A stretch of DNA of 58,078 nucleotides from an uncultured Candidatus Saccharibacteria bacterium (GCA_964617735.1 CAZTXT010000001.1:78260-136337); one strand, 5' to 3'; shown: positions 9,073-25,255, numbered from the stretch's first letter. Numbers and translations: made by a program. The notes: generated from the letters alone by a model not told the origin.

Positions 9073-9645
9073 ATGATCGCAAAACTCACCGGCACTGTTT
9101 CGCATCGCGGCAGCGGTTTTGTTGTCCTCGACGCGGGCCCGGTCGGCTACAAAGTCTTCGTCAAAAACGCAACGATGGAGGAGATTGTGAAAGCAGGGAC
9201 ACAACCCGTAACCCTGCTGACCTACCTTGCGGTCAAAGAGAACGGGATGGACCTCTATGGATTCCTGCACCGCGAAACAATGGAATTCTTTGAACTTTTA
9301 CTGACCGTAACCGGCATCGGTCCCAAGTCGGCACTTGCGATACTTAATATCGCGCCCGTCCCGACACTCCAGTCGGCCATCGCCTCCGGCGATCCTTCGC
9401 AGTTGACCAAAACGACCGGCATCGGAACCAAGCGCGCCGAGCGCATCGTGATGGAACTTAAAGATAAATTGGAAGTCGGCGCGGGAGAACTCGCCGTGCA
9501 TCAAGATGCTTCCGACGTACTGGAAGCACTCAAGGCGCTCGGCTATTCGCAGAAAGAAGCGCGCGATGCTCTACAGAAGCTCCCTAAAACCGGAGGAACC
9601 GCGGAAGAGAAGATAAAACAGGCACTCAAAACGCTTGGGAAATAA
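9073..9645 (+). CDS. ruvA: Holliday junction branch migration protein RuvA
   Basis: MIAKLTG, LYGF, VTGIGPKSAL, GIGTKRAERI, ALKALGYS. Confidence 0.96.
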   Translation: MIAKLTGTVSHRGSGFVVLDAGPVGYKVFVKNATMEEIVKAGTQPVTLLTYLAVKENGMDLYGFLHRETMEFFELLLTVTGIGPKSALAILNIAPVPTLQSAIASGDPSQLTKTTGIGTKRAERIVMELKDKLEVGAGELAVHQDASDVLEALKALGYSQKEARDALQKLPKTGGTAEEKIKQALKTLGK

Positions 9646-9668
9646 GCGCAGTCTAACCATCAATCATT

Positions 9669-10475
9669 ATGAATTCAGCTGAATATTCTTCCTCCGAAAG
9701 ACGACAATTGCTCGATCGTTTTTATACCCTGCGGCGCAATCTTTCAGCCCCGCACCATAAGGCGTTCACTATGGCCCAGAGCCAGATGATGGTGAAAGAA
9801 AGAGATGCGGTATTAGATGAATACGCCAAGCGCTTACCTCTCGTCCCGTTGAGCCGTTGCCCGTTTTGCGCCGAGCCGCTCGAATATTCAATAGATGTGC
9901 AGGGACTTGATGGTCCTTGGTGGTTTAATGGGCCGATGGCGGAATTCCCGCAACCCAAATGCTGCACGCACTTTCGGGTTCTGCTCGGCGCGATGGATTT
10001 TCATTCGAATCGTCCGCTTGAGACCGAGCTGATACCCGAAGTGCTGCCCGGTCCTGGGGTTCCTTTTGTCGTGCCCCGACTCCTAGAAATACCGACGATG
10101 AAAACGGTGGTCTCCAGTTTCACTATACCTCCGAACTATATGGCTTATGCGATCGCCTATTTTAGCGAAAATCCCCTTCACGGCGCTTTATTGCACCAGC
10201 CTTGGGGACGTCAGGCCTACCAAGTCCTTGACGAGAATGGAAAATATGAGGGTTGGACTGCGGCCAACGATAAGATTGATTTTGACCTCGGGCCTTGGAT
10301 TGATAAAGGTTTGGTTCTCTGGGTCAACCCGGGCGATTCGACGTTAACTCTGCAGAATCGCCCGCCCTGCCCTTACGTCAATCTTCCCGGCGTTCGGGCA
10401 CCACAGAAAATCGTCCGCGGAGAACTTGAAACCATGCCCCTCCCTACCGGCAAACGGCTTCAACCTTTCGAATAG
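9669..10475 (+). CDS. Hypothetical protein with Cys motifs, just beyond the last CRISPR repeat
   Basis: 268-aa ORF with SRCPFC, GLDGPWW and KCCTH; not a typical CPR core gene. Confidence 0.75.
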   Translation: MNSAEYSSSERRQLLDRFYTLRRNLSAPHHKAFTMAQSQMMVKERDAVLDEYAKRLPLVPLSRCPFCAEPLEYSIDVQGLDGPWWFNGPMAEFPQPKCCTHFRVLLGAMDFHSNRPLETELIPEVLPGPGVPFVVPRLLEIPTMKTVVSSFTIPPNYMAYAIAYFSENPLHGALLHQPWGRQAYQVLDENGKYEGWTAANDKIDFDLGPWIDKGLVLWVNPGDSTLTLQNRPPCPYVNLPGVRAPQKIVRGELETMPLPTGKRLQPFE

Positions 10476-10496
10476 CAGAGCCATATAGGCATTCGG

Positions 10497-10531
10497 GTTG
10501 CACACCATCCTCTTCGCAACGTTACTGCAAG
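10497..10531 (-). repeat. Repeat R6 (leader-distal, degenerate, 35 bp)
   Basis: GTTGCACACCATCCTCTTCGCAACGT--TACTGCAAG: 4 substitutions and a 2-bp deletion versus consensus. Confidence 0.85.
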
Positions 10532-10633
10532 GCCTTCCTGCAGGCAATGCATTTTATAAGTGATTCAGAGAAGCTTCAGATGAAGAGCAGGCCTGTTCGG
10601 AAATCATCCGAACAACGATTCAAGCAATGTTAT

Positions 10634-10664
10634 GAAAGAAAAAGGCCAGCTCCTGCTGGCCTTT
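10634..10664 (-). terminator. Intrinsic terminator in spacer 5
   Basis: AAAGGCCAGC-TCCT-GCTGGCCTTT stem, T-rich tail on the - strand, downstream of ORF 10690-10899. Confidence 0.7.
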
Positions 10665-10689
10665 CGTGATTGCAGCACTCCAAACTTAC

Positions 10690-10899
10690 CTAAATACCAA
10701 CTTTAGCAAGCTCTTGGGGATTGCGGAGCGTGAGCAGCCGTGCTCGCGAAATATGACCCCTCGCCAACTTTTGAAGTGCTCGAAGTTCAGACTTCTCTAC
10801 AGCGGAAAGCACTGAAGACATCTTTTTGCGTAAAAGGGTTACTCGACGGGCATTCTGCCGTTTCCTGAACTTTGATGTACTACTAGACAAGGTTTGCAT
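10690..10899 (-). CDS. Small basic hypothetical protein (spacer 5 cargo)
   Basis: 69 aa, GAAAGGA SD upstream, terminator downstream. Confidence 0.6.
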   Translation of the reverse strand: MQTLSSSTSKFRKRQNARRVTLLRKKMSSVLSAVEKSELRALQKLARGHISRARLLTLRNPQELAKVGI

Positions 10900-11061
10900 A
10901 TATAATCCTTTCTAATTCAGATGATAAGGATTATTGAATAATTTGCAATGGAGTTATTGGAAGCAAATTCAGAGCGCATGTCAGAGAGGACACTTGCACG
11001 GGGCTTCAAACATAAGCAAGGCATTTCTTAACCTTAAAGAATAGGATTTCGAGGGAAAGTG

Positions 11062-11098
11062 GTTGCACACCATTCTTTTCGCGACGTAGTACTGTAAG
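11062..11098 (-). repeat. Repeat R5 (4 mismatches)
   Basis: GTTGCACACCATTCTTTTCGCGACGTAGTACTGTAAG. Confidence 0.92.
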
Positions 11099-11132
11099 CT
11101 TTTACCGTGCGGTCGCGAGGTAGTGGGCCTTG

Positions 11133-11429
11133 TTAAGAGGGCTTGATAATTCGAGCGCGACATGCGCCAAGAAGCGCCCCCAAGAGAAAGAAGATCGGCA
11201 CTCCAAGAGAAATTTCCAACCAATATGGGGGATAAAAATCAAGAATCTCATTAAGTGCCCAGAAAGGTATCCAGGGAAATGCCAAAGGAATGCACTCAAA
11301 TCCTAAACCGGTGTATCCGGGAACAAAAATGTGGTGCATGCAAGATTCGTATAGAGCGCCAGATATCAGCGAGCTAATTCCCGCAATTGCTCCTCCGCGC
11401 AGCCAAGGTGGCCAAAACTTCCAGTGCAT
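11133..11429 (-). CDS. Small membrane protein (spacer 4 cargo)
   Basis: MHWKFWPPWLRGG..., 98 aa, TM segments; start placed just after a TG-n-TATGAT extended -10. Confidence 0.65.
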   Translation of the reverse strand: MHWKFWPPWLRGGAIAGISSLISGALYESCMHHIFVPGYTGLGFECIPLAFPWIPFWALNEILDFYPPYWLEISLGVPIFFLLGALLGACRARIIKPS

Positions 11430-11435
11430 AAGGTT

Positions 11436-11465
11436 ATCATACCAAAGGTTGTTTATCATTGTCGA
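11436..11465 (-). promoter_or_regulatory. Putative sigma70 promoter inside spacer 4
   Basis: TCGACA-N18-TATGAT with TG extension, 6 nt before the ATG. Confidence 0.45.
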
Positions 11466-11521
11466 CAAGAGTGACTGAAAAGCCGATGCACTAAGCATCG
11501 GCTGTGTGGCTCACGACGCTA

Positions 11522-11558
11522 GTTGCACAATATCCTTTTCGCGACGTAGTACTGCAAG
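11522..11558 (-). repeat. Repeat R4 (consensus)
   Basis: Exact 37-bp match. Confidence 0.97.
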
Positions 11559-12061
11559 TTTACTCATATCTGGTTCTTTCTTTTGGGCGAGCGTGCACGT
11601 CGCCAGGCCATGTTTTTGGAGGTGGAGCCACACAACATCAATGCGGTGCGACTGAACCACGGTTGTGCAATAGTTGTAGCCGCGGACGGTCGTGCCAGGT
11701 TGGCTGAGCGCGTGGCGCGAATACAACCACCGAAGATAAAGATGGAAACGGGAAGAATCTGATCCGACTGAATGCTACAGAGACGGACAAGCAAAAACCC
11801 CAGAACACGGTAAGTTGCTCTGGGGAAGCACCTCGCCAGAAACCAAGTTCTGGGGCTGGGTGAGCGTTGGGGAAATCGGAAGCCCGACGCCATCCAGGAT
11901 TAAGTATAATTGTGGATTCTCGATCGTCAAACCTGGTAGTCTGGGAGTCCTGCGGGTTGAGGACGTTTTTATAAAAATGCATTTTTTGTGAAACAGAAAC
12001 GCCCACTTTGCCGTCTTTGTGAGTAGAGTTTCCGATAAAGTGCGGGAATTCTTCAACATGC

Positions 12062-12736
12062 ATGAAGCGAGAAATCGGCTGGGCGCTCGTGCGCCTTGCA
12101 AAAATGCGCCTCTCCCCGGACGCGTGGCATCACTGGGAGCAAGTGCGCAAAGACTGGGCAATGGTTGCGCGTTTTGTGAGCCATTGCCAAAAGGTAACAA
12201 CGGGATGCCACTGCAATCTCTGGGAGGAGGGCTGCCACTGCGAAGCGGAGGCTGAAGTCCTCGTCCAAGAGACCTTGGTTCGAATAGACACAAAGTTGTT
12301 GCCAAAATGCGAGACGATGGAAGTGTGGAGAATAGGTAATTACGTGGAAGAGATTGCGCGGAACGTGGCTTATGGTGAATTCGCGAAAGCTTCAGCGCAG
12401 AAACGTGGAGGTCGTAAAGGGAAAGAGGGGCGACACCAGCTTCCAGAGCGGATTTCGTATCCCGATGCGGAAGAAAGCGAAGACCAGCGGTTGAATCTTC
12501 CTGTAGTTGCCCTCCCTACGCAGGTTCAAACTGCTTCACTCAAAGAATTCGACCAAAAAGTGCGTCGGTTATATTACGATGGCGTAATCGATGACAGAGA
12601 GCTTGAGGTTTTGAGAGACCTCATGGAAGAGCGTACGCAACGCGAGATTCGAGATCGAAGGCGTATGAGCTTGAGCCGAGTTAACGCATGCTGTAAGAAG
12701 CTGCGGGAGATTCTGCGAATGCATTGGAGTTGGTAA
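12062..12736 (+). CDS. ECF-type RNA polymerase sigma factor-like protein
   Basis: Region 2-like AEVLVQETLVRI, KRGG motif, C-terminal region 4 HTH (RTQREIRDRRRMSLSRVN). Confidence 0.65.
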   Translation: MKREIGWALVRLAKMRLSPDAWHHWEQVRKDWAMVARFVSHCQKVTTGCHCNLWEEGCHCEAEAEVLVQETLVRIDTKLLPKCETMEVWRIGNYVEEIARNVAYGEFAKASAQKRGGRKGKEGRHQLPERISYPDAEESEDQRLNLPVVALPTQVQTASLKEFDQKVRRLYYDGVIDDRELEVLRDLMEERTQREIRDRRRMSLSRVNACCKKLREILRMHWSW

Positions 12737-12755
12737 TTCTCTTCAGCCAGAAAAT

Positions 12756-12784
12756 GCCGCCTGGTTCGAAAGGAACCGGGCGGC
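12756..12784. terminator. 12-bp stem-loop between the sigma and anti-sigma-like genes
   Basis: GCCGCCTGGTTC-GAAAG-GAACCGGGCGGC. Confidence 0.45.
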
Positions 12785-12799
12785 TTACTAATACTTGAA

Positions 12800-13090
12800 A
12801 TGAGCAACTTGAACGCGAAGTCAATAGGCACGGGAACAGTTTGTATTTCGGAAGATGATCTTCTGCTTTTCGTCAGCGAGAACTTCGCTGAAACAAAAAT
12901 GGGCGCGTATGTAATTGCGGAGCACTTAAACCAGTGCCGGAAATGCCGGGACCGGGAGGGTCGGATTCGGGCGCGTTTGCAACATTTATTAACAACCGTC
13001 GCACAGATGCCGAACTGGAAGTGGCTGGATAGCGAGCATTCCGTTTACCGAGAAAAAGGCTGGCTAAAACTCAAGAGGAAGGGCGCGTAA
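12800..13090 (+). CDS. Putative zinc-binding anti-sigma (zf-HC2/ZAS) domain protein
   Basis: EHLNQCRKCR matches HxxxCxxC; directly downstream of the ECF-like gene. Confidence 0.55.
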   Translation: MSNLNAKSIGTGTVCISEDDLLLFVSENFAETKMGAYVIAEHLNQCRKCRDREGRIRARLQHLLTTVAQMPNWKWLDSEHSVYREKGWLKLKRKGA

Positions 13091-13177
13091 AGGAAAGTGC
13101 GGAGCTGGAAGAAAGGGAGCCTGCTCCGGTTTCTCAGGGTGAGTCCGATTGAATTGCTTTCGTAGGACTTGTTCGGC

Positions 13178-13432
13178 TCACTTGACCCGCTTGGCTGCGA
13201 GTTCTGCCTCGTGTAGGACGGTTGAAAGTTCCAGGCGGAGCGCGCCCGAGATCCGAAGCAATGTTTCGAGCGATGGGTTCCGTTGCTCACTTTCGATAAG
13301 GCTGATCATGCCTTGGGAAAGACCAGACATTTCTGCCAGGCGGGTCATGGAAATGTTCTGCTCTTTCCGCTTTTCACGCAATATGCGGGCGACGTGCGAA
13401 CAAACGGATTCGCGATAGCCGATTTTTGTCAC
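13178..13432 (-). CDS. XRE-family HTH transcriptional regulator
   Basis: LREKRKEQNISMTRLAEMSGLSQGMISLIESEQRNPSLETL. Confidence 0.9.
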   Translation of the reverse strand: MTKIGYRESVCSHVARILREKRKEQNISMTRLAEMSGLSQGMISLIESEQRNPSLETLLRISGALRLELSTVLHEAELAAKRVK

Positions 13433-13464
13433 AGTTAAGGGCTACCAAAAAAATCCATTGACAA

Positions 13465-13489
13465 CGGACATTACTATAGTAATAGTCCG
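13465..13489. promoter_or_regulatory. Palindromic operator in the divergent promoter region
   Basis: CGGAC-ATTACTATAGTAAT-A-GTCCG with a perfect 14-bp core palindrome, 1 nt after TTGACA (13458-13463). Confidence 0.6.
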
Positions 13490-13491
13490 AT

Positions 13492-13734
13492 ATGTTCATT
13501 CGGCGTCTTGGCCCGGATCCGCACGCAAACGGGAATCGAACCTTTGCGGTGAAAGGGTGCCCTGATATTTTCGAGCTGGATGGTGGTGATTTCGCGGTTA
13601 TCGGCACGGACATTACTGCGGTGGCCGAGAGCAAATTGCCTCCTTCTGCCAGTTGCGGGGCTGACGAAAGGGTTGTTCGAATACCCCGGAAGACCCTTGT
13701 ATTAGCGAAACCAGACATACCCGACAAGATATGA
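13492..13734 (+). CDS. Small hypothetical protein (CPDIFEL...GDFAVIG motif)
   Basis: 80-aa ORF divergent from the XRE gene; well-formed protein-like sequence. Confidence 0.7.
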   Translation: MFIRRLGPDPHANGNRTFAVKGCPDIFELDGGDFAVIGTDITAVAESKLPPSASCGADERVVRIPRKTLVLAKPDIPDKI

Positions 13735-13767
13735 GCCGCCACTTGCTTTTCGTGTTAAAATGGGCCG

Positions 13768-14223
13768 GTGGAAAGCTGGCTTGCAAAAAACTGGTTCGAA
13801 GCCGTGAGCACAATCGGGATTGTTGCCAGTCTGTTATTTACCGCGCACTCGCTGCGCGCGGAGACAAACTCACGAAGGATCAGCAATTTGATTACGTTAA
13901 CGCACAATCATCGCGAAATTTGGAGCGAATTTTTCAAAAATCCGAAATTGGAGCGGATCCTTACCGGGCAGCCAACGATTTTGGAACGCCCGATCACAAT
14001 CGAAGAAGAAATATTGGTGAATCTGGTCATTCAGCAATTGCAGAGCGTGTTTTACGCCATATCGGACAAGCTAGTACTCAAGCCGGAACAATTGGGCACA
14101 GATGTAAGGGATTTTTTGTCGCTGCCGATCCCCCGCGCAGTTTGGGAGAAGAACAAAACTCTGCAAAATCGCGATTTCGTTTCATTCGTGGCGGAGCAGC
14201 TTCAACCTCGTCGCAGTGGTTGA
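13768..14223 (+). CDS. Hypothetical protein with N-terminal TM (DUF6082-like, tentative)
   Basis: 151 aa, one TM then a helical domain; GTG start. Confidence 0.65.
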   Translation: MESWLAKNWFEAVSTIGIVASLLFTAHSLRAETNSRRISNLITLTHNHREIWSEFFKNPKLERILTGQPTILERPITIEEEILVNLVIQQLQSVFYAISDKLVLKPEQLGTDVRDFLSLPIPRAVWEKNKTLQNRDFVSFVAEQLQPRRSG

Positions 14224-14293
14224 AGCGTGCAAGAAAGGGCTTTTGACTGACTAAAACCATACGGCACAGGGGAGGCAACATATCAGGTGTCAT

Positions 14294-14515
14294 TCACAAA
14301 TCGGCAACAAGATCGGACACTTTAACGTGTAACGCATCGGAGATGCGGAGTAAGGCATGAAGGCTGATCCATTTTTCGCCTCGCTCGATTTTGCCAAGAT
14401 AGACCGGGTGGAGGTTCGCCTGTTCTGCAAGGTTTTCCTGGGTAAGTTTTGCGTGTTTCCGATGCTTCCGAATTGCTTCACCGAGATTTCGTCTTCGTTG
14501 TTGAATGCGCGACAC
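14294..14515 (-). CDS. XRE-family HTH regulator
   Basis: IRKHRKHAKLTQENLAEQANLHPVYLGKIERGEKWISL. Confidence 0.9.
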   Translation of the reverse strand: MSRIQQRRRNLGEAIRKHRKHAKLTQENLAEQANLHPVYLGKIERGEKWISLHALLRISDALHVKVSDLVADL

Positions 14516-14706
14516 AGTCGTTTAGGAGAGCAAGAAGCGCAGGCGGAAAACACACCCCATAGGGGTTCATTTTGTTCTTGCATTTGGGAAGGGTTTTGTC
14601 AGTATCGGCATAGCGTGGGCGATGGTTCAGTCTATTGGCGGCGCTCCACTGGCTGAGTTTCCATCCTTCCGGGAGTTGCATTTAGAAGTCAGCAGAGAAC
14701 TTAATC

Positions 14707-15957
14707 ATGAAAACGAGTAGACCAATTGGGACTTCAGCGGGTCTTTTGATTCTGATAGTAGTGTGGTTTGCGCCGGGAGGACTTGCTCAAGTGAACAGTG
14801 GGAGTGACGGGCGTGATGGCCCACTCGATCCCGGAATATGCCCAGGCGGGGCGTGTAGTGTCGTCATCGACATGCACGATCATCCAGATGGGGTTTATCA
14901 ATATACTGCCGTTAATATGGCTCCTGGAGTTACTGTGACGTTTGTGCCAAATTCGAATAATACTCCGGTTGTTTGGTTGGTGCAGAGCAACTGTGTAATT
15001 AGCGGAGGCGCAACCGTCATTGTGACGGCACAAGGTGGGAGCGGTGGGTCAGGTGGGGCAGGAGGGCCCGGTGGATTTCGCGGAGGCAATGGAGGAACGC
15101 TTAGCGCTGGAGGAATGGGGCCTGGCGGGGGATTGGCGGGCGGCTACGTTGGCGGCACTGGATCATATGGAATGTTTGGCACGAATGCCGCGGGGACTAC
15201 TAATGGAGATGGAGCTATCTATGGAAATCAATTTCTGCTGCCCCTGGTTGGCGGTTCCGGTGGGGCTGGCTCAATGGGAAGTTGTAGCACCATCGCCTTT
15301 GGCGGCGGGGGCGGCGGGGGAGCGCTATTGATTGTCGCGTCCGGAAGAATCCTGCTGGATGGGAGTATCGAGGCATGCGGTGGTCCAGCATGCGGAGGAT
15401 TTTACGCCTGTCCTGGAGGATTCAGCACGAATATCGCGGGAGGTGATGGCAGCGGGGGGGCGGTGAGGCTAGTTGCCTCACAAATTCTTGGCAGCGGCAG
15501 CATCTATACCGGTCGCTCAGGAAGCTATTGCGGTGAGGCCAGTTTTGGAGGTTTAGGAAGAGTCAGACTTGACTCCCCGGATTTAAACTTCGGTGGAATA
15601 ATTACGGCTGTAGCAAGTCAAGGATTCCAGCCGATAATTATTCCTTCACAAGGGACAGGTGTTCAACTAGCGATTGCAAGCATTGGCGGAGTACCGGTTT
15701 CTGCGTCTCCAACTGGACAACTTGCAACTCCTGACGCTGTGCTCTCCAGTCAGCAGAGCAACCCTATTCCCATCGTTGTGAATTGCTCGAATATTCCGTT
15801 AAACACGCAGATCACGGTGGTAGTCAGGCCAGCTACTGGCCCGGCTGTAAGCGCGACAGGACTCAACAACACTGGGACGCTCTTGGCGAGCACGGCTACC
15901 GTTTTGCTTAATATGCCGCGAGGCGGGGGAATCATTTACGCAACTGCAGCAAACTAA
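14707..15957 (+). CDS. Secreted glycine-rich protein
   Basis: Signal peptide, SGSDGRDG, long G-rich tracts, C-terminal beta-sandwich-like region. Confidence 0.8.
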   Translation: MKTSRPIGTSAGLLILIVVWFAPGGLAQVNSGSDGRDGPLDPGICPGGACSVVIDMHDHPDGVYQYTAVNMAPGVTVTFVPNSNNTPVVWLVQSNCVISGGATVIVTAQGGSGGSGGAGGPGGFRGGNGGTLSAGGMGPGGGLAGGYVGGTGSYGMFGTNAAGTTNGDGAIYGNQFLLPLVGGSGGAGSMGSCSTIAFGGGGGGGALLIVASGRILLDGSIEACGGPACGGFYACPGGFSTNIAGGDGSGGAVRLVASQILGSGSIYTGRSGSYCGEASFGGLGRVRLDSPDLNFGGIITAVASQGFQPIIIPSQGTGVQLAIASIGGVPVSASPTGQLATPDAVLSSQQSNPIPIVVNCSNIPLNTQITVVVRPATGPAVSATGLNNTGTLLASTATVLLNMPRGGGIIYATAAN

Positions 15958-15965
15958 AACGCCGG

Positions 15966-17951
15966 ATGAGGTCTTCGACGCAACTTGGAATAGTTGCAAC
16001 CTTGCTCTTGAAATCGCTCTCGTTATGCGCAGACGAGGTTACTACAAACGCCATGTCGCCTATCGTGAGCTACCAATACCTTAATGCCGTGGATGAGCAG
16101 GGAACAACGCTGGCAAGTCCGATAGTTAGTTTCCAATTCCTGAGCTCATTGGGCGAGGCGGCAACGACAGTATTTAGCCGCATTGTGGGCTACCAGTATT
16201 TGGATTGGGCAGGCAATGACGCGTTACAACTGGAGAGCAGTGATCAGGTGAGCTATTACTATCAATTTCTAAACGTCCCGCCTCTCGTTATTATCCCTAC
16301 GAATCGCACGGCAACTGCCACAGAGGTCAGTCCTTCAGTTGTTCTCCCTGGCCCAGATCCTTGGCAACTCAAGACGTTCACAAATGGCATGCTTAGGACT
16401 AACGTGGCGCCTGATTCAAACTGGATGAGCGTTGTGCTGACCCATGGCTGGAACAGCAGCCCGGAGGCATGGGCAACGAACATGGCACAATTGATTTCTG
16501 CAAACGCTACAACATCGGCGAATATTTTAATTTGGGACTGGACGAGCGCTTCGCAGTCCACGCCATGCCTCTCATTGCAGGCGGATTTCGTTGGAGCGGC
16601 GCGACTGACACCTGACCAAGGATTCGCGTTAGCGATGGCATTGCGCTCGAAATTAGGAACAAATTATTCGCACCAGATTCATTTTATCGGGCACAGCCTT
16701 GGCGCTCTGGTAAACGGATTCGCCGCAATCTACCTCCATCACCACGGATTCGCTCCTACTAACACTCAAATAACAATGTTTGATGAAGCAGAAGTAGCAA
16801 CAGATCTGAGTTGCCCGGAACTCTTGAATGCAGTCCTGTTCAACCAGTGGAATCCTCTTTCGCCGAAGCCATACTATTGTCATCCCCTGCCGCGGCAATT
16901 CGCCTGGGCAGACAACTACATCACTGCGTTCGGGCTTCTGCATCCTGATGCGCACAACGTCATCCTTACGAATGGTTTCCCGGGCAATGCTGCGAACCTG
17001 ATAAACTTGGGTCAGAAGTTAGCTAATTTTCACAGTTACCCTTGCGATTGGTACGCCGAGACGGTTAGCAGTAACAATTCGGCGATGGGGCATCAGTGGT
17101 CGTTTGAGCAGGGCGGATTTTCGGGAGGGCGCGACACGAACACCGTCTTCCGTCAATCGTTTAATGGGTCGCTTTGGAATCTTGCGGAGTTGGATTATGC
17201 TGCTGGCAGCAATTACTTGGCCGGGCGATTTGAGAAGTATCGCGACGCCGTGAAGTATGCTGTTACTAATAAGTCTCCGAGCGCTATCGCCGCAAATGGA
17301 ATTGTGTTCGGCTTCGTGCTTCTTGGGCTTACATTTGACGGCTTCGTTTTGTACTTGCAAACCAGCGCTGCCAGTCCTCAAGTTTCTGAATTCCCCCGCC
17401 AGGGTTCCCACGGGCACGACGGTGGTGCGGGCGGGAACGGGAGCACGGGCGCATGTGCCTGGTTGAGGCTACCGATTCCTGCCGACGGAGTTTCCATCTC
17501 CTTTGATTTCAAGGTTGACGGCGATTGGCAGGATGATTCGCTGGCGGCGGCACTAAATGGAACAAACTTACTTCTACTTGCCGCCAGCCAAGTCGAGACC
17601 AACATTGTGCTCAATAGCGGCCTCATTGATATAAGGTCATATGCTGGCCAAACGAACGAACTCTTTGTCGGAATCGTTGGAGGCACCTCCACGAATGCTC
17701 TGCTGACCGTGGGGAACGTTGCGATCTACACAGCCGCAGTGCCGTCATTGCACGGGGAAGTAAGCGGAAGGGATTTCAACATTTCGTGGCCGCTCACGGC
17801 ACAGAACTTCAACTTGGAATCTACAACCAATCTGGAGCTGATAAATTCTTGGACGGCAGTCACCAACACCCCGGCCATAGTCAATTTCCAGAACATAGTC
17901 ACGAATGACGCTTCCACGGATAGTAGGTTTTACCGTCTAAGAAAGTATTAA
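15966..17951 (+). CDS. Secreted alpha/beta-hydrolase (lipase-like) with C-terminal Verrucomicrobia-style appendage
   Basis: VLTHGW, nucleophile elbow GHSLG; C-terminus ISWP...FNLESTTNL...W...VTN...RFYRLRK. Confidence 0.75.
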   Translation: MRSSTQLGIVATLLLKSLSLCADEVTTNAMSPIVSYQYLNAVDEQGTTLASPIVSFQFLSSLGEAATTVFSRIVGYQYLDWAGNDALQLESSDQVSYYYQFLNVPPLVIIPTNRTATATEVSPSVVLPGPDPWQLKTFTNGMLRTNVAPDSNWMSVVLTHGWNSSPEAWATNMAQLISANATTSANILIWDWTSASQSTPCLSLQADFVGAARLTPDQGFALAMALRSKLGTNYSHQIHFIGHSLGALVNGFAAIYLHHHGFAPTNTQITMFDEAEVATDLSCPELLNAVLFNQWNPLSPKPYYCHPLPRQFAWADNYITAFGLLHPDAHNVILTNGFPGNAANLINLGQKLANFHSYPCDWYAETVSSNNSAMGHQWSFEQGGFSGGRDTNTVFRQSFNGSLWNLAELDYAAGSNYLAGRFEKYRDAVKYAVTNKSPSAIAANGIVFGFVLLGLTFDGFVLYLQTSAASPQVSEFPRQGSHGHDGGAGGNGSTGACAWLRLPIPADGVSISFDFKVDGDWQDDSLAAALNGTNLLLLAASQVETNIVLNSGLIDIRSYAGQTNELFVGIVGGTSTNALLTVGNVAIYTAAVPSLHGEVSGRDFNISWPLTAQNFNLESTTNLELINSWTAVTNTPAIVNFQNIVTNDASTDSRFYRLRKY

Positions 17952-17981
17952 CTCACCGCAGGGGCTCAGCGGCAACCGCCG

Positions 17982-18392
17982 CTAGTCGTGGAAGATGGTA
18001 GCCAAAAACGGTATGGCGACCAAAGAGACAAAGAGATCAAGCACGACGGCTAGAAAGATGCCGAAGGCAATTAGTTTTAGGATTATTTGGAACTGGGCTC
18101 GCGGCGGCTTCTGGTTGATTGTGGCTTCTGTGGATGGTTGATGTGAAGTGCTTGGCCTGGATCTTGTCTGATCTTGGGTTGGACGCAGGAATAGGAGAAT
18201 CAGTATAGAGCCGACAATTAGAATACCTGATAGAAGGCCACCCCGTATCATAACCTGCATTTCTGCCATGATATCGTCGGCAGGTTGCGGCATAAAGACG
18301 ACATATGACAGTATTATAGCGCCAACGAAGGAGCCTAACGTGATGGCAACGTAAGAAATGTAGCGAATAATGTGAATCAAGGCGTTTTTCAT
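17982..18392 (-). CDS. Three-TM hypothetical membrane protein
   Basis: 136-aa ORF with hydrophobic segments. Confidence 0.6.
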   Translation of the reverse strand: MKNALIHIIRYISYVAITLGSFVGAIILSYVVFMPQPADDIMAEMQVMIRGGLLSGILIVGSILILLFLRPTQDQTRSRPSTSHQPSTEATINQKPPRAQFQIILKLIAFGIFLAVVLDLFVSLVAIPFLATIFHD

Positions 18393-18529
18393 ATGTCTTG
18401 TTGTCTTGTTGCGCAGGGGTGACCATTATTGTACCCGAAATTAGTTTCATAAAAAAGCCGACGTTGTGGACGTCGGCTGTGTTGGCTCAAAGCATCCGTT
18501 GTAGGAGGCCTGTGAGCAGCAAAATAATA

Positions 18530-19171
18530 TTAGGCAAGTCGAGCACGTGCCGTGCGACAGTGGTGCTCGTCCAGTTCAATGAGGACGAACTTGCGATGAG
18601 CAGCCCTGGCGGCAACACCAGTGGTGCCCGAACCTGCAAACGGATCTAGCACAATATCGTCTGGTTGCGAGAATGCTTCGATCAGCGGCAAAAGACAAAT
18701 CACCGGTTTTTCCATTGGGTGAAACTCATTTCCTGTGTATTCCCAATCGAAAACGTCATCTGGCGGATAGGCCGGCCTCAGCGGTTTGCCTTTGGCCAGG
18801 AGGAATGCTACTTCGTGATAGCTGCGAGTGTAGCCCTCGCGTGAACAATAGTCTTTCACCCAGATCAGATGACTGACCGGACGAAACCCCACCTGTTTCC
18901 AAACGTGCATAAACCGATCAATCCAAGGCCAGCCATAAAAGCTGGCGCAAAATCGGTCGGGCTTAAGCACGCGATGAATCTCGTGAAATGCCGGCCGCAA
19001 CCAATGATTGTTGTCATCGTTGGCGCAACGCCGACCGTCGCGAGCAACATACCTGGTTAGGTAAGGTGGATCGGTGAGCACTAAGTCAACACTTGCGTCG
19101 GGCATCGTGCGCAGAACGGAAATGCAATCGCCGTGAATGACCTGGTTAAGGAAGCTATCGATGGTTTGCAT
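18530..19171 (-). CDS. Orphan DNA methyltransferase (N6-A/N4-C, beta class)
   Basis: Motif IV TDPPY precedes motif I DPFAGSGTT; HPMEKP. Confidence 0.92.
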   Translation of the reverse strand: MQTIDSFLNQVIHGDCISVLRTMPDASVDLVLTDPPYLTRYVARDGRRCANDDNNHWLRPAFHEIHRVLKPDRFCASFYGWPWIDRFMHVWKQVGFRPVSHLIWVKDYCSREGYTRSYHEVAFLLAKGKPLRPAYPPDDVFDWEYTGNEFHPMEKPVICLLPLIEAFSQPDDIVLDPFAGSGTTGVAARAAHRKFVLIELDEHHCRTARARLA

Positions 19172-19185
19172 GTTAAGCCTCCTTT

Positions 19186-19473
19186 TCAGTAATCCTCAGG
19201 CAACAGCACTGTTGTGACAGACCGATCAGCTTCGGTGATAAGCCAGAACTTCGTGCCGTTCTGTGCGTGATATACGGAAAGCAAACGGAAGCCTTCTTTG
19301 AGTGAAAGGTCATTTTCGCTTCTGTCATCTTCACTCACGTCGCCCCAATCGCCAGCCTGGTGCCGTTGAATGGCGACCAGGATGTCTTGGTTTGATACCT
19401 TTCCAAGCGCATTTGGGGTGGCCACAATCCTGCCAAGCCGTAACCGAGCAATGGGTGGTTTGTGAGCGCTCAT
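19186..19473 (-). CDS. Plasmid/ICE-associated conserved small protein
   Basis: LGRIVATPNAL...RHQAGDWG...RLLSVY...WLITEADRSVTTVLLPEDY, a family I recall from mobile-element leading regions. Confidence 0.75.
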   Translation of the reverse strand: MSAHKPPIARLRLGRIVATPNALGKVSNQDILVAIQRHQAGDWGDVSEDDRSENDLSLKEGFRLLSVYHAQNGTKFWLITEADRSVTTVLLPEDY

Positions 19474-19799
19474 AAGCCGAAGTCCTCCATTGCCGAGGCA
19501 ATGGCGTCTTCGTCATCGCCAAGGATTTCCACCAAACCTGCTTTTAACGCTGCCTTGTCGAGGTCGGGTCTGGCCCCCTTGGGACAAGCAGGGCAGCGGA
19601 TAACATCGAGAATTGAGGCACCGAACTCATAACCGGCCGCTTTGAACTGCTCGCGATACCGCCCCGAAAGCCGTTTGGCGACGGGTAGGGAGCGCCAAGC
19701 TTCGGCTTCAGCATGGTCGACGGTCGTTTCGAAAATGGCATCGTGCCGGAGGTGATAGACATCCCACGGCTCATTGCATGATGAACAATGAACATCCAT
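19470..19799 (-). CDS. Hypothetical protein with CxxC pairs
   Basis: MDVHCSSCNEPWD...CPAC; overlaps the next gene by 4 nt. Confidence 0.7.
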   Translation of the reverse strand: MDVHCSSCNEPWDVYHLRHDAIFETTVDHAEAEAWRSLPVAKRLSGRYREQFKAAGYEFGASILDVIRCPACPKGARPDLDKAALKAGLVEILGDDEDAIASAMEDFGL

Positions 19800-19814
19800 A
19801 CGCGTGCTCCTTTC

Positions 19815-20490
19815 TCAGTTGTAGAAGTAACCAAGCTGTCGGAGCGAGCAATGGTTGGGATTGCCAATTATGACATGATCGAGGACCTCAATTTTAAGAA
19901 GTTGGCCCGCGCGAATGAGGTCTCGCGTGACTTTGATGTCTGCCTCTGATGGTTGCGGCTCACCGCTAGGATGATTGTGCATGAGCACAACGGCCGCTGC
20001 CGCCGTGATTATTGCGACCCGGAACACCTCCCGTGGATGGACGAGGATTGTATCGAGCGTGCCGATGCTCACCATCTGATGCCCTTTCACACGCCGGCGT
20101 GTGTTAAGCATGAGGACAGCGAAACATTCGCAGTCCGGCATGAAATACGGATTTGTGGCGATATGGGACCGCCAATAATCGGCAGCGTTCTCTGGAGTTT
20201 CGCACAAATGCATTCCCTCCGGCATGGGGCATTCGCGCAATGTGATTACTTTGTATTCCTTGGCCGGCGGGATCGGTTTGGGATCTGCCGGGGCCTCCTG
20301 CAATTCGAGAGTTGAGGCGGGAACGATTGCATACTTATCCCTGGGGTCATTTCGGGATCGGTGCGTTGGCGCACCGCAAGGATGTTGCCAGCAACGGCGC
20401 CCGGCATTCCAATGGAAGCCAAGATCTTTCAGTTTATCGCGGATTTCCTTGAGTGGCGCGACCGAAAATTCGAGCCACACCCATTTGCCG
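19815..20490 (-). CDS. RadC/JAB-domain protein, 5'-truncated at the repeat
   Basis: VHPREVF, HNHPSG...PSEADI, LDHVII; the frame runs into repeat R3 with no native ATG. Confidence 0.85.
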
Positions 20491-20527
20491 GTTGCACAAT
20501 ATCCTTTTCGCGACGTAGTACTGCAAG
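20491..20527 (-). repeat. Repeat R3 (consensus)
   Basis: Exact 37-bp match. Confidence 0.97.
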
Positions 20528-20591
20528 AACAATCACCGATTTGCTGCAATCTCGATAACGGATAGGAAAGGGCCTGGCAAAAGTTGCAAGC

Positions 20592-20621
20592 AAAAAGGCA
20601 ACGAGAAGAACGCGTTGCCTT
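20592..20621 (-). terminator. Intrinsic terminator in spacer 2
   Basis: AAGGCAACG/CGTTGCCTT 9-bp stem with a T run on the - strand. Confidence 0.55.
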
Positions 20622-20651
20622 CGTGTGAGTCCTCTGCGAACCCTATCTGCA

Positions 20652-20828
20652 TCAGGAAATGCCGAACTTCGCAATCGTAAGCCGGAAGTTTCGTGAGGGC
20701 TTTACCCTGGCATGATTCCGAAGGGATAGATTCAAGGATTCCGAGATCCTGCGGACCTTTTCTGCCATACTTTGGACCTCTCGAATCTCTGACAGAGTCA
20801 AGGATTGTTTTGAGTGTAGTTTATTCAT
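20652..20828 (-). CDS. Small basic hypothetical protein (spacer 2 cargo)
   Basis: MNKLHSKQSLTLSEIREVQ..., 58 aa, followed by a terminator. Confidence 0.35.
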   Translation of the reverse strand: MNKLHSKQSLTLSEIREVQSMAEKVRRISESLNLSLRNHARVKPSRNFRLTIAKFGIS

Positions 20829-21197
20829 AATGGTAAGCCAACAAAGCAAGTGAGAGGCCGTCTCTAAAGGGTTGCCGTACGCAATTATAGACATTTGAAT
20901 GAACCGTGTTCTCCAAAGAGGAACTTGGACAGGCCTTCTGCATCCTAGACATTCCTCCTTTGCTTTGCTGATGGTACCAAATTAGTCCGATTCTGTAAAT
21001 CGGCTTTGGGGTATTGTGCCCATCACAGAAAGCAGGCACACTTTGTCCCCGCCTGGTACAGCTTTGAGACAAACAGACTTGGAACCGCTCAAAGAAGACC
21101 CCGAATCCTTAATTGGCGGAAGAAGGAGTAAAGGGCTTCCACAGCCGCCGCTGCGCCAACTTAGACGTGATAGGTATTGCGTGGTTCCGAACTGACA

Positions 21198-21234
21198 GTT
21201 GCACAATATCCTTTTCGCGACGTAGTACTGCAAG
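21198..21234 (-). repeat. Repeat R2 (consensus)
   Basis: Exact 37-bp match. Confidence 0.97.
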
Positions 21235-21335
21235 GTAAGGGGCCTTTCGGGGGCTGTTATGTTGACGATCAGATCAAATTTGCCGTCACCGTCCCACGGG
21301 CGGTTGACACGCCTGAAAATCTGAAGAGGACCATA

Positions 21336-21629
21336 ATGGTTGAGAGCTTGAAGGCTCAATTGGAATCCTTGCGTGAATCACGACGCGAGAGGGATGAAGC
21401 CGCCGAGATTATCAGGAATGCTTTTAACGAGGTGAGTACCATCAACAAGGTGGCGAATGCGTTTAATACTATGCATCACCAAATGAAAAAGGAGAAAGAA
21501 GAGGCGGCACGGAAAGCAGCTCAAGAAGAACGATTGACCCCTGAGCAAACAGAGGAATTTGTAAAGGAGGCCCTGCAACAAGTTGATAAGCTCTTCCTCG
21601 CCTTGACGGACCGATACTTGCCTAAATAG
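21336..21629 (+). CDS. Coiled-coil hypothetical protein (spacer 1 cargo)
   Basis: GAGGA SD then ATG 21336; 97 aa, charged and helical. Confidence 0.65.
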   Translation: MVESLKAQLESLRESRRERDEAAEIIRNAFNEVSTINKVANAFNTMHHQMKKEKEEAARKAAQEERLTPEQTEEFVKEALQQVDKLFLALTDRYLPK

Positions 21630-21657
21630 AAAAAAGGGGTGCCAGTGGGCACCCCTT
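21630..21657. terminator. Terminator between convergent spacer 1 ORFs
   Basis: AAGGGGTGCC-AGTG-GGCACCCCTT with an adjacent A run. Confidence 0.7.
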
Positions 21658-21691
21658 GTCGCGCGACTGAGCCAAGAATTCCGACCCGCAC

Positions 21692-22132
21692 TTATAACCT
21701 CATTGTGGGCGACGGCGACCCACCGCAGAGCTGTTCGAATTCCTTAGCGGCTTCGTCACCTACCTCCTGTTCGGATGGCGGCTCAACGTAAATCTCGGCG
21801 CAAAGCCGTTGGAAGGTTTCTTGGTAAGACCTGAAGAACTCGGGGTGGCGCCGCATACCGTTTCGCAGCAGATCCTTGATGAATCGGCAACAGGCCTGTT
21901 GCTGCTGATGGTGAAGTTCGCAAATCTTACTTACATGCGAAAAACTCACATGACTCTCCAACTGACGGCGGGCTTCTTCCCTGCAGACAGAGGAGACGAG
22001 CTCACCAAATTGACGCCGTTCGTCCAGCGACAAACGAGGGAGCGTGAGTAAGAAGAGGCGCTTCCACGCAACTTCTCCCTGACTGTCATTTGAGTTCGGG
22101 GTCAGTAGCGCTAATGATTGGGAACTAAGCAT
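21692..22132 (-). CDS. Hypothetical helical protein (spacer 1 cargo)
   Basis: GAAAGGA SD then ATG 22132 (MLSSQ...); 146 aa. Confidence 0.65.
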   Translation of the reverse strand: MLSSQSLALLTPNSNDSQGEVAWKRLFLLTLPRLSLDERRQFGELVSSVCREEARRQLESHVSFSHVSKICELHHQQQQACCRFIKDLLRNGMRRHPEFFRSYQETFQRLCAEIYVEPPSEQEVGDEAAKEFEQLCGGSPSPTMRL

Positions 22133-22250
22133 AGTTGAATTCCTTTCGTTGGCTGATTGGCAGTGCAGAACTCCGCGTACACCATGCACGTGGCGTTCTG
22201 TCTGCCAACCGAGGTTTCTCTGCTTAGTACCGCCCCCTCCATCTTTCGCC

Positions 22251-22278
22251 ATTATATCACGCCTATAATCTATGTCAA
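22251..22278 (-). promoter_or_regulatory. Consensus sigma70 promoter inside spacer 1
   Basis: TTGACA-N16-TATAAT on the - strand. Confidence 0.75.
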
Positions 22279-22524
22279 GAGTATTACAGCCTGACTAAAA
22301 AGCAGAGATTTGCTTGCTGACAGTCTGGGCAGAAGGCTAACTGTCCGGTCTGCGGCCATGCACGACATTCATTCGCGGATGGAGTTTCGCGTCAGCCTGT
22401 TCGTCCTCGCCGGTGAGAACCAACAATGCGATTGGGTAGAAGCGTTCATCATCAAAAACGGAGTGTGCGTCGCGCGGACCGGATTACCATCGTTCTTAAT
22501 ATGACGCATAAGCACGCTGATCGA

Positions 22525-22561
22525 GTTGCACAATATCCTTTTCGCGACGTAGTACTGCAAG
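22525..22561 (-). repeat. Repeat R1 (leader-proximal, consensus)
   Basis: Exact 37-bp match, 38 bp from the cas2 stop. Confidence 0.97.
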
Positions 22562-22599
22562 AGCCAGCAATTTAAGGATTGCCTTCTGAATTTACTTGA
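22562..22599 (-). promoter_or_regulatory. Putative minimal CRISPR leader (38 bp)
   Basis: The only sequence between the cas2 stop and the first repeat. Confidence 0.5.
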
Positions 22600-22881
22600 C
22601 TAAACGATCTCGTATGGTTTTCTATTGCGTGTAATGGCATAGGAAACGTCGTGCCGTTTGAAACAATCTGCGCACAAGACAACTACATGGTACTTATCAT
22701 TGCGACCGTTGAAAATATTTTTCATTTTATTTTCAAATTCAAGTCGTTCGTTTGTACTTATTGGCCCCGAAAATAAATTGCGATGAAGCGAAATAAGTCC
22801 ATAATCAGCACACACAGTCCGCGCCCGTTCTGCCTTTCGAGCATTCTTTGCAAACCATAGTACTATAGAACCCGAATTCAT
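22600..22881 (-). CDS. cas2: Cas2-like protein (divergent)
   Basis: 93 aa directly after cas1; DYGL...LFSG...D...VVLCADCFK aligns by eye with Cas2; the N-terminal YDI motif is replaced by WFA. Confidence 0.75.
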   Translation of the reverse strand: MNSGSIVLWFAKNARKAERARTVCADYGLISLHRNLFSGPISTNERLEFENKMKNIFNGRNDKYHVVVLCADCFKRHDVSYAITRNRKPYEIV

Positions 22882-22892
22882 CCTATTGATAT

Positions 22893-23894
22893 TTATAAGA
22901 GCACAGAGAAATCTATCGACAAGTAGGAGGTCTGATTTCCCAGAAAACATCGACTCAAAACACGGTTCTGCTCTAAAATGACATCTCTTAGCGTTCGGCG
23001 TTTCCCCTTCCAAAATATCCTCTGGTTCAGACGATTTAACACACCTTCAACTACCTTGGCCTTCCCTTCTGGAGAAAGACGGTATTCATCTTTGCTTATT
23101 TTTTCAAAATCACTACGCTTGCCGAGTTTTTTCTCTATGAAGAGCGGAATGATCGCGGAATCCACGATTGGAACTCGAAATTCCTCAACAAGGTCAAGCA
23201 CCAAAGCCGGTTTACCGTAGCGGTCGGAGTGGTATAAACCCAGATAGGGATCGAGTCCGACATAGAGGCACGCGCGTTCGACTTCATTATAGAGAATTCC
23301 GTATCCGTAGTTGAGTGCGCTGTTGAATTTGTCACGTCCTTGTGGAACACGACCAGGAAATTTATGCAGACGTTTCAAACAGTCCCAGTATTTATCTGCT
23401 ATAAAACCCTCAGTCCCCAGTAGCTGGTTACGGGCTTTTTCTCCACCTGGGATTCCCCAGATATTCTGTAGTAAAGTCTCGGCTTGCACGATTTCTTTTC
23501 CAAAATCCTTGCCGTATTTTGCCGAGAGGAATTTAAGGTATGTGATCTGATTGCGACATTTTCCATAAACAAATTGTTTTGCCAACTCGAATGATCGAAT
23601 CGGATCACTAGATACGACAAGTTGACCTCGACGCATTGTTGCTAACCCCTTCGAATCGCTCGAGAAAATTCTTCCAACAGGTTTTCCGAATGACCCGAGA
23701 TAAACAATGTCTACTTCATGCTCGATAGCGAGCCGGACGGCATGCGTAGAAATAGAAGAGGGTCGCAGGATTACAATTTTATTCAGACGCCGGATGGGAT
23801 ATTCCTTGCGCTTTTTCGTTTTCGGAAATCGCAGAGCGATACGTTCACCAGTCGATCCTATAAAGGTGCCGTATGTATCAATGAGTAGGTCCAT
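22893..23894 (-). CDS. cas1: CRISPR-associated integrase Cas1
   Basis: LLGTEG, NSALNYGYGILY, GLDPYLGLYH, LVLDLVEEFR; catalytic E/H/E present. Confidence 0.96.
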   Translation of the reverse strand: MDLLIDTYGTFIGSTGERIALRFPKTKKRKEYPIRRLNKIVILRPSSISTHAVRLAIEHEVDIVYLGSFGKPVGRIFSSDSKGLATMRRGQLVVSSDPIRSFELAKQFVYGKCRNQITYLKFLSAKYGKDFGKEIVQAETLLQNIWGIPGGEKARNQLLGTEGFIADKYWDCLKRLHKFPGRVPQGRDKFNSALNYGYGILYNEVERACLYVGLDPYLGLYHSDRYGKPALVLDLVEEFRVPIVDSAIIPLFIEKKLGKRSDFEKISKDEYRLSPEGKAKVVEGVLNRLNQRIFWKGKRRTLRDVILEQNRVLSRCFLGNQTSYLSIDFSVLL

Positions 23895-23924
23895 AAGAAT
23901 TTCTCTTAAACCTATAACAGGCCA

Positions 23925-23952
23925 ATATTAACACAGATAAGAATAATGTCAA
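23925..23952 (-). promoter_or_regulatory. Putative cas1-cas2 promoter
   Basis: TTGACA-N16-TAATAT with TG extension, 30 nt upstream of cas1. Confidence 0.55.
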
Positions 23953-23989
23953 CATACGGCTTCCCAGCAAATCACGCTAGTATGGAGCC

Positions 23990-25255
23990 ATGGATTCGAT
24001 ATTGCGTTTGGGGCGTACGATTATCCCTCGAAAACTTTTTGTCGCGCTCCAGCCGACCTACCACTATCTGCTCGCATGGGGCGCGGCAGTGATCTACGGT
24101 TTTCCTTCCCAAAAACTCAAGATCGTCGGGATCACTGGTACTAAAGGAAAAACTTCGACTGCCGAACTGACCGCAAGCATTTTAGAAGCCACGGGCTTCA
24201 AAGTTGCCCTCGCGGGGACGCTTCATTTCAAGATCGGTGACCATGAGGAGCCGAATCTTTTTAAAATGACGATGCCGGGACGCTTTTTCATGCAACGATT
24301 CCTGCGGCGCGCCGTCGACGCGGGATGCCAGTGGGCAGTACTCGAGATGACGAGCGAGGGGGCGCGGCAATCCCGCCACGCGTTCATCGAGCTTGATGCA
24401 CTCATTTTCACTAACCTCTCCCCCGAGCATATCGAATCGCACGGCTCGTACGAAGCGTACCGAGACGCCAAGCTCAAGCTCGCGCGAGCGCTCGAACAAT
24501 CGCGAAAAGAGAGGCGCGTGATGCTCGCCAACGCCGACGACAAAGAAGCCCCGCGATTCCTCGCGGCCAAAGTCCCCCGCAAACTCACCTTTCAGTTACG
24601 CGATGCAGGCGCGTATCAGCTCACCGACCATGGCGTTTCGCTCATCTATAAAGGAGAGCGGATCAGCTCTCCTCTGCGCGGCCTCTTCAACATCTACAAC
24701 ATCATGGCCGCCGCGACGTTCGCGGAATCCCAAGGCATCCCACCGGAGATCGCGAAAAAAGGCATCGAACACATAACGGAGATCCGCGGCCGCGCGCAAG
24801 AGATAGCAGCCGGACAGGATTTCACCGTCATCGTTGACTATGCGCACACCCCCGATTCGCTGCGCGCGATCTACGAAGCATTCGAAGGAAAGCGAAAGAT
24901 CTGTGTGCTCGGCAGCACCGGCGGCGGACGCGACACGTGGAAGCGCCCGGAGATGGGAAAGATTGCCGATGATTCGTGCGACAAAGTCATCCTCACCAAC
25001 GAAGACCCCTACGACGAAGATCCCGAAGGGATCATCAAAGAAATTGCATCGGGAATGAGCAAACAAAAACCGGAGATCATCATGGATCGCCGCGCAGCCA
25101 TCGCGCATGCGCTCTCTTGCGCTCGCACATCTGACGCAGTGATCATCACCGGCAAAGGCACCGACCCCTACATCATGGGCCCGAAAGGCTCCAAGATTCC
25201 GTGGAGCGATGCGAAAGTCGCAACAGAAGAACTTAAGAAAATGAGAGCAGTATAA
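23990..25255 (+). CDS. murE: Mur ligase (MurE-like UDP-N-acetylmuramyl-tripeptide synthetase)
   Basis: GITGTKGKTST, EMTSEG, FTNLSPEH, VDYAHTPD, NEDP, GKG. Confidence 0.88.
   Translation: MDSILRLGRTIIPRKLFVALQPTYHYLLAWGAAVIYGFPSQKLKIVGITGTKGKTSTAELTASILEATGFKVALAGTLHFKIGDHEEPNLFKMTMPGRFFMQRFLRRAVDAGCQWAVLEMTSEGARQSRHAFIELDALIFTNLSPEHIESHGSYEAYRDAKLKLARALEQSRKERRVMLANADDKEAPRFLAAKVPRKLTFQLRDAGAYQLTDHGVSLIYKGERISSPLRGLFNIYNIMAAATFAESQGIPPEIAKKGIEHITEIRGRAQEIAAGQDFTVIVDYAHTPDSLRAIYEAFEGKRKICVLGSTGGGRDTWKRPEMGKIADDSCDKVILTNEDPYDEDPEGIIKEIASGMSKQKPEIIMDRRAAIAHALSCARTSDAVIITGKGTDPYIMGPKGSKIPWSDAKVATEELKKMRAV

Follow-up and report, generated by a model that had tools for sequence, protein, structure and literature searches.

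CRISPR integrases are textbook molecular rulers, and the spacers that they insert are fixed in length to a few bases. Here we describe an island in a 58,078-nt stretch of DNA from an uncultured Candidatus Saccharibacteria bacterium (GCA_964617735.1, CAZTXT010000001.1:78260-136337; hereafter the window), in which a cas1-cas2 pair is followed by six copies of a 37-bp repeat separated by long segments of DNA, here called cargos. Sequence comparisons make it likely that this effector-less Cas1-Cas2, of a Patescibacteria (Paceibacteria-type) lineage, inserts DNA, whatever its length, at the leader-proximal repeat. The system resembles canonical CRISPR adaptation in its Cas1 with conserved catalytic residues, its Cas2, the 37-bp repeat next to a leader, the exact duplication of that repeat and the decay of the distal copies. 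It differs in that the inserts, of 183-8932 bp over the window and its related loci, have no fixed length, whereas canonical spacers measure about 30-40 bp, and also in the lack of an adjacent Cas4 and of any effector found in the genome, in a leader of 2-45 bp and in the mostly single repeat.

Stand-alone adaptation modules are known from numerous archaea and bacteria, and solo Cas4 is found in numerous candidate-phyla-radiation genomes (Hudaiberdiev et al. 2017, PMC5704561). The present locus is similar to those modules in being a cas1-cas2 locus without effector genes; however, the modules in PMC5704561 are described as remnants after effector deletion, and neither kilobase spacers nor clade-wide loss of arrays is reported there. 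Casposons, which together with integrons come nearest to it in function, share with the window locus a Cas1-family integrase, kilobase DNA and target duplication. They are self-mobilising elements with terminal inverted repeats, a family-B polymerase, no Cas2 and 14-15-bp duplications, whereas the window locus carries arbitrary cargo without terminal inverted repeats and has, in addition, a Cas2 and a leader-repeat target; profile scans found no polymerase family among the open reading frames (ORFs) of the island. An ordered stack of acquired DNA beside an integrase gene, with the newest unit presumably nearest to it, is also the arrangement of integrons, although these (IntI, attI and attC) use another enzyme family, and the window locus has no attC, holds inserts that often truncate genes and shows no cassette promoter logic. 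Finally, the type V-C Cas1 mini-integrase, which Wright et al. are said to have described in 2019, reportedly takes up 17-19-bp spacers without Cas2 and keeps its effector; it is likewise a CRISPR integrase with an altered length rule, while the present system has no upper constraint on length and lacks an effector. A full-text literature search found no published description of Cas1-Cas2 arrays with kilobase spacers, and to our knowledge none has been described.

All genes and repeats of the module lie on the minus strand. The cas1 gene (22893-23894, 333 aa; Pfam PF01867 (Cas_Cas1) 9e-67, TIGR00287 5e-68) is followed after 11 nt by a cas2-like gene (22600-22881, 93 aa; PADLOC Cas2 1.5e-7), and a 38-bp leader (22562-22599) extends from the cas2 stop to the first repeat, its repeat-proximal end (..CTGGCT) being conserved across related loci. 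The repeat, GTTGCACAATATCCTTTTCGCGACGTAGTACTGCAAG, is present in four exact copies, namely the leader-proximal consensus copy R1 (22525-22561), R2 (21198-21234), R3 (20491-20527) and R4 (11522-11558), and in two altered ones, R5 (11062-11098) with 4 mismatches, all substitutions, and R6 (10497-10531), the most decayed, which is 35 nt long with substitutions and a 2-bp deletion. The array is therefore polar, with four identical copies proximal to the cas genes and two decayed copies distal to them. The spacing between repeats, from the cas-proximal to the distal end, is 1290 bp (cargo 1, 21235-22524), 670 bp (cargo 2, 20528-21197, without a recognisable family), 8932 bp (cargo 3, 11559-20490), 423 bp (cargo 4, 11099-11521, with a small ORF at 11133-11498 on the minus strand) and 530 bp (cargo 5, 10532-11061, the interval between R5 and R6). 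Every repeat junction shows an exact 37-bp duplication with sharp edges and unrelated flanks, and no short spacer or spacer remnant was found at any junction of the window array. Dinucleotide shuffles gave 0 matches to the repeat, and a scan of the whole 763-kb genome, on both strands, with the position-weight matrix of the repeat family returned only the six window copies. The coordinates that the first-pass annotation had given for the repeats, their spacing, cas1, cas2 and the 38-bp gap were all recovered on re-search, and at the flanks that it had assigned to core genes, ruvA and a Mur-ligase gene are indeed present.

On the minus strand at 19815-20490, cargo 3 carries a RadC-like gene that is 5'-truncated at the R3 edge: the family homology opens precisely at the first cargo bases beside R3, and the RadC homologues (n = 120, 70-77% identity, mostly 245-258 aa) have about 27-31 extra N-terminal residues (..TLALLGRLKTEMPEIW.QA.VV) that are missing from the window copy. 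Homology to two donor-like loci, L100 and L102, both in DNA and in translation, begins at cargo base 1-2, which corresponds to a position 95-200 nt inside their radC, and neither locus has a repeat-like sequence at ≥15 bits by the position-weight matrix. Insertion of the repeat into pre-existing DNA was considered and rejected at R3, because radC stays incomplete when R3 is deleted and the island holds no copy of the missing 5' end.

Comparable edges are found in relatives. An IS256/Mutator transposase gene in locus L022 is 3'-truncated at profile position 270/379, precisely at the repeat edge. In two further cases cas1 itself is fused to the first base of the repeat, being cut at codon ~228 in L047 (2203-2266), which is 87-88% identical to L023/L025 up to the cut, and at codon ~95 in L072 (5808-6129, the same as L073); these loci no longer have the remainder of cas1, nor cas2 or the leader. 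Here, too, arbitrary sequence meets the repeat precisely at the leader-side boundary, and the fusions could reflect intramolecular integration/deletion or a captured cas1 fragment. Among 12 cargos from the window and its relatives, there are no terminal inverted repeats, the end-to-end scores being within the shuffled range, and no shared end motif or attC-like element. The cargo breakpoints are arbitrary, and edges that cut genes, with no cassette-like boundary, imply that random fragments, both of mobile elements and of kin DNA, were inserted. The proposal of the first-pass annotation that whole genes are captured in an integron-like manner is not supported, given the truncations of RadC and IS256 and the missing cassette boundary, attC and end motif.

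Three kinds of source are represented in the cargos: a conjugative-element-like region, kin-type DNA and, in a relative, a phage tail module. Besides the RadC-like gene, cargo 3 encodes an orphan N6/N4 DNA methyltransferase (18530-19171, minus strand; PF01555 5.5e-32, NF010253 4.8e-76), a lipase-like protein of 661 aa, a sigma-70-like protein and others. When its DNA was compared with plasmids, the methylase alone was matched, and it resembles plasmid leading-region methylases; the comparison with phages gave no match. The donor-like L100 keeps the gene order radC, 96-aa gene, N6/N4 methylase, and the neighbouring genes in L100 and L102, on contigs of up to 367 kb, are of the DUF87/TrwB-type, primase, GGDEF and sensor-kinase kinds. 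We read both, from their gene content, as conjugative-element-like regions of larger-genome bacteria, and cargo 3 as a fragment of such a region. In the relative L022, a 7.7-kb cargo corresponds to a stretch of phage tail genes (collagen-like fibre and minor tail).

Cargo 1, presumably the newest, carries a module at 21588-22355 that is 95.7% identical over 771 bp to G000:C1:576797-577567 (L103, ~7800-8570), a second copy in the same genome, 475 kb distant and unrelated in its flanks. The module consists of a consensus promoter, a gene of ~146 aa and a hairpin terminator, and its central ~330 bp are 100% identical. Since it is duplicated within the same genome, kin-type DNA seems to be captured as well; the module may itself be mobile, or may be a marker of kin DNA as donor. 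For most cargo ORFs of the window, PHROGs and PADLOC gave no match, and two have no exact-protein record, probably because of start-codon choice. No integrase, transposase or recombinase family was detected among the island ORFs in the profile scans. A 174-nt direct repeat (97%) was also noticed within the 4.2-kb cargo of the relative L016 (12148-12321 and 13414-13587).

Whether the arrangement is peculiar to the window can be judged from its relatives. The Cas1 has ~1,575 homologues, hundreds of them close (60-75% identity), the named ones belonging to Parcubacteria/Paceibacterota/Patescibacteria, and about 75 related loci were retrieved. A conserved repeat family, CCTGCA..GTCGCA.AAAGG..TTGTGCAAC (consensus CCTGCACACATATGTCGCACAAAGGATATTGTGCAAC), with conserved end motifs and a conserved centre, lies on the cas strand 2-45 bp past cas2 in most of these loci and nowhere else. 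The repeat was absent from viral, genome and metagenome contig collections, bar one chance match in a coding region of a Fimbriimonadia metagenome-assembled genome. Canonical arrays were found in none of the 58 loci with Cas1 at 43-80% identity. In the same collections the detector did report arrays of 7-46 units beside distant Cas1 (26-35% identity), a control that also includes one locus whose only Cas1 match is a 74-residue stretch at 44%.

The first-pass annotation had named widely spaced repeats with different cargo downstream of cas1 orthologues as a check, and both features are borne out. At least two repeats occur in seven distinct loci, the window included, and the spacers in the others measure 183, 549, 1262, 1482, 3478, 4242 and 7672 bp; some of these loci lie on contigs of 305 and 675 kb. 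On the 305-kb contig (L016), the module is within a ribosomal protein operon, between L5 and S8. In L012, L014 and L022 it occupies the same chromosomal site, after pgk-tpiA, and the DNA distal to the first repeat is wholly different in the three, while both flanks are conserved between L012 and L014. The suggestion that this integrase has lost its length ruler is consistent with the repeat duplication, the polar decay, the conserved leader end, the arbitrary breakpoints and the lack of canonical arrays in all 58 loci.

In the window itself, the island is bounded by the RuvA gene (9073-9645) and the Mur-ligase gene (23990-25255). In five of five congeneric genomes, all without cas1, ruvA adjoins the Mur-ligase gene at a distance of 5-470 bp, and we therefore conclude that the intervening 14.3 kb (9646-23989) is an insertion, containing orf268, the six repeats, the five cargos, cas2 and cas1. 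Beyond R6, the distal end of the island (9646-10496, with orf268 at 9669-10475 on the plus strand) is likewise absent at the ruvA/mur junction of these five genomes. The cas1 gene is missing from the five other genus members and from all but two of 60 relatives, and this Cas1 is present in 3 of 401 sampled genomes of the class, the window genome being one of them. Such a rare and patchy distribution is as expected of a horizontally moving module.

The array of the window is almost certainly not an assembly artefact. Two Logan contigs, which are built from raw reads at k=31 by a pipeline separate from the window assembly, are each 100% identical to the window: L011 (run SRR12313480) covers the 5' end of the Mur-ligase gene, cas1, cas2, the leader and the first 29 nt of R1, and L104 (run SRR12313479) covers the last 30 nt of R3 and then 4.9 kb of cargo 3. 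Both break about 30 nt inside the 37-nt repeat, as k=31 unitigs should, which indicates that the leader-R1 and R3-cargo 3 junctions are real in the reads of two runs. For a relative locus, the ENA assembly (L014) and that of a separate JGI project (L019) agree at 99.945% over 14.6 kb, all three repeats included. The window is especially informative in that its six repeats decay in a polar manner, its empty site is clean, one gene is truncated at an exact base and has donor-type relatives, and junctions have been confirmed.

The Cas proteins themselves appear to be of the adaptation type. In an alignment of 23 clade members, E162, H222 and E237 of Cas1 are invariant, the Cas1 profile scores are nearest to the I-B/I-C/I-D/I-G group, and the nearest PDB structures are Cas1 4n06 (1.7e-46) and 7cr6, followed by 6opm, which we take to be a casposase structure. 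As for the Cas2-like protein, the window copy is weak on Pfam alone (3.7e-4, below the cut-off), and when the clade profile was compared with PDB, the best 4 and most of the 11 listed matches were Cas2, with a best value of 7e-4. The clade proteins are divergent and do not have the usual N-terminal acidic/catalytic Asp motif; an alignment of the window with 18 loci shows C24, C70 and C73 to be invariant, possibly as a Zn site.

Upstream of cas1, a near-consensus sigma-70 promoter (23925-23952, minus strand; TTGACA-16-TAATAT with TG) is predicted to drive cas1-cas2, and similar consensus promoters sit upstream of cas1 in related loci. A weak repeat-like match in this region proved to be the promoter's -35 box and not a repeat, and no evidence was found for repeats flanking the cas module on both sides. 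In L026, L029, L032 and L056 a palindrome, TTGAC-N4-6-GTCAA, overlaps the cas1 promoter and might serve as the operator at which a repressor controls the integrase genes. Motifs resembling GTCGCACAAT occur upstream of cas1 in L018, L023 and L037, where they could be shared flanking sequence. At the other end of the module, the leader is only 2-45 bp across the clade, and the leader signals must therefore overlap cas2.

No interference machinery seems to accompany the module. PF03787 (RAMP), PF07282 (TnpB/Cas12) and TIGR01865 (Cas9) gave no hit in the 99.99%-complete genome, where Cas13 and Cas3 were not specifically searched; of the positive controls, PF03787 and PF07282 responded, and the control genomes for TIGR01865 were all below the curated cut-off. 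In the annotated loci L012, L014 and L016 no effector genes stand beside cas1. A solo Cas4-like frame (PF01930, 22.5 bits, 291 aa) was observed at G000:C1:482171-482533 (L110), 380 kb from cas1-cas2; the match is weak, and it is conceivable that the protein acts in end processing for the integrase. As for an RNA form of the repeat, the consensus folds at -11 kcal/mol (z = -3) and the window repeat at -5.8 (z = -0.2), the hairpin shows no covariation beyond shuffles (28 distinct repeats, 270/500), and no CRISPR-DR family of Rfam matches the repeat. The lack of covariation, which is absence of evidence only, fits a repeat that is recognised as DNA.

From the 37-bp target duplication beside a conserved leader, the base-exact junctions, the arbitrary cargo ends, the polar decay and the fact that no other genes are constantly linked to the repeat, we infer that Cas1-Cas2 is the catalyst and that the array grows at its leader-proximal end. 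In the proposed scheme, the module is made up of the promoter, cas1 and cas2, together with a single 37-bp repeat behind a very short leader. As normal spacer acquisition does, the integrase would target the leader-repeat junction and copy the repeat with every insertion, presumably by making the usual pair of transesterifications at the borders of the repeat, after which the gaps would be repaired. It would not, however, measure its substrate, so that linear fragments of ~0.2-9 kb would go in whole; both 3' ends of the fragment are probably captured regardless of the distance between them, in a casposase-like manner. Conjugative elements, phages and kin cells may supply the fragments. Each later insertion would move the earlier inserts, along with their repeats, farther from the cas genes, with the distal repeats decaying, and the outcome would be an ordered archive of random DNA fragments rather than of gene cassettes.

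Some observations weigh against this interpretation. It is drawn from sequence only, with the order of the cargo units known from assembly alone, and known Cas1-Cas2 complexes measure their substrate. Most related loci show one repeat only in the sequence at hand, which implies that acquisition is rare or that many loci are inactive, and the distal 850 bp with orf268 hold no further or terminal repeat. The 771-bp module shared with another genomic site could also have come from recombination, and an enzyme other than Cas1-Cas2 might be at work. The same-looking end product would indeed arise if repeat-bearing circular mobile elements, of the kind called solitary repeat units, recombined with the chromosomal repeat, by homologous or site-specific recombination and without catalysis by Cas1-Cas2; phages recombining with CRISPR repeats were reportedly described by Varble et al. 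in 2019, and the sharing of the cargo 1 module speaks for the same process. We nevertheless regard it as unlikely, because the cargo ends cut conserved genes at positions where the homologues have ordinary coding sequence and no repeat, L100 and L102 are repeat-free, and the contig collections yielded the repeat only in the chance match mentioned above. Quite unlikely, too, is an unlinked recombinase that uses the 37-bp repeat as its attachment site, with Cas1-Cas2 merely linked or inactive. The case for Cas1-Cas2 catalysis is indirect and a solo Cas4-like nuclease is encoded elsewhere in the genome, which leaves some room for such an enzyme; yet cas1 and cas2 are the only genes constantly linked to the repeat over ~50 loci, there is no candidate gene and no integrase or transposase family in the island, and the duplication of a whole 37-bp target beside a conserved leader is a Cas1-Cas2 signature.

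It could also be supposed that a canonical array decayed and was later hit by mobile elements, given that insertion sequences commonly enter arrays and that the distal repeats are degenerate, or that the repeat itself spread as a small insertion. Neither the window nor the 58 related loci contain a short spacer or a remnant of one, however, no transposase was found in the island and no terminal inverted repeats at the cargos, and the spread of the repeat is at odds with a RadC gene that stays broken when R3 is removed, its 5' end being found nowhere in the island; we consider these histories highly improbable. Chimeric joins at a CRISPR repeat are barely credible. The source is probably metagenome-derived, repeats can mislead assemblers and the cargo order is taken from the assembly, but the junctions recur in k=31 Logan contigs of two runs, the same architecture is seen in independent JGI and ENA assemblies and in 7 loci, canonical arrays are assembled elsewhere from the same data sets, and a chimeric join would need a repeat inside the donor gene, where donor-like loci have none.

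If integration by a ruler-less Cas1-Cas2 is correct, a Cas1-Cas2 lineage inserts DNA ~100x longer than usual, with exact target duplication and without interference machinery. It would then bridge the functional divide between casposons (Cas1 only, kilobase cargo) and CRISPR adaptation (Cas1-Cas2, short cargo), and the proposed transposon origin of CRISPR would become testable with a living, intermediate-like system. It would also reveal a new way in which ultra-small symbiotic bacteria acquire DNA horizontally, and offer a compact tool of two proteins (333 + 93 aa) by which large DNA could be inserted site-specifically and independently of homology. A broader proposal, about which our doubts outweigh our belief, is that the Patescibacteria lineage has a natural ruler-less site-specific integrase that writes any linear DNA entering the cell (0.2-9 kb, perhaps originating in hosts, phages and kin) into the 37-bp site. 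On this view the archive would either supply genes to a minimal genome or act, independently of effectors, as a memory of the captured elements or a defence against them.

Some features of the window outside the island may be recorded. In the intergenic region from 27995 to 28809, direct repeats of 25-29 nt with 74- and 149-bp spacing are located at ~28170-28350. A 70-bp exact direct repeat is present at ~30902-30971 and ~31236-31305, 334 bp apart; its first copy straddles the start of an ORF on the plus strand (30924-31895) and the second lies inside it, as an internal protein repeat. The segment 44001-46000 has a G+C content of 0.36-0.40, compared with ~0.51 elsewhere, and overlaps two ORFs on the minus strand (44046-45161 and 45355-46719), so that it is possibly another foreign islet.

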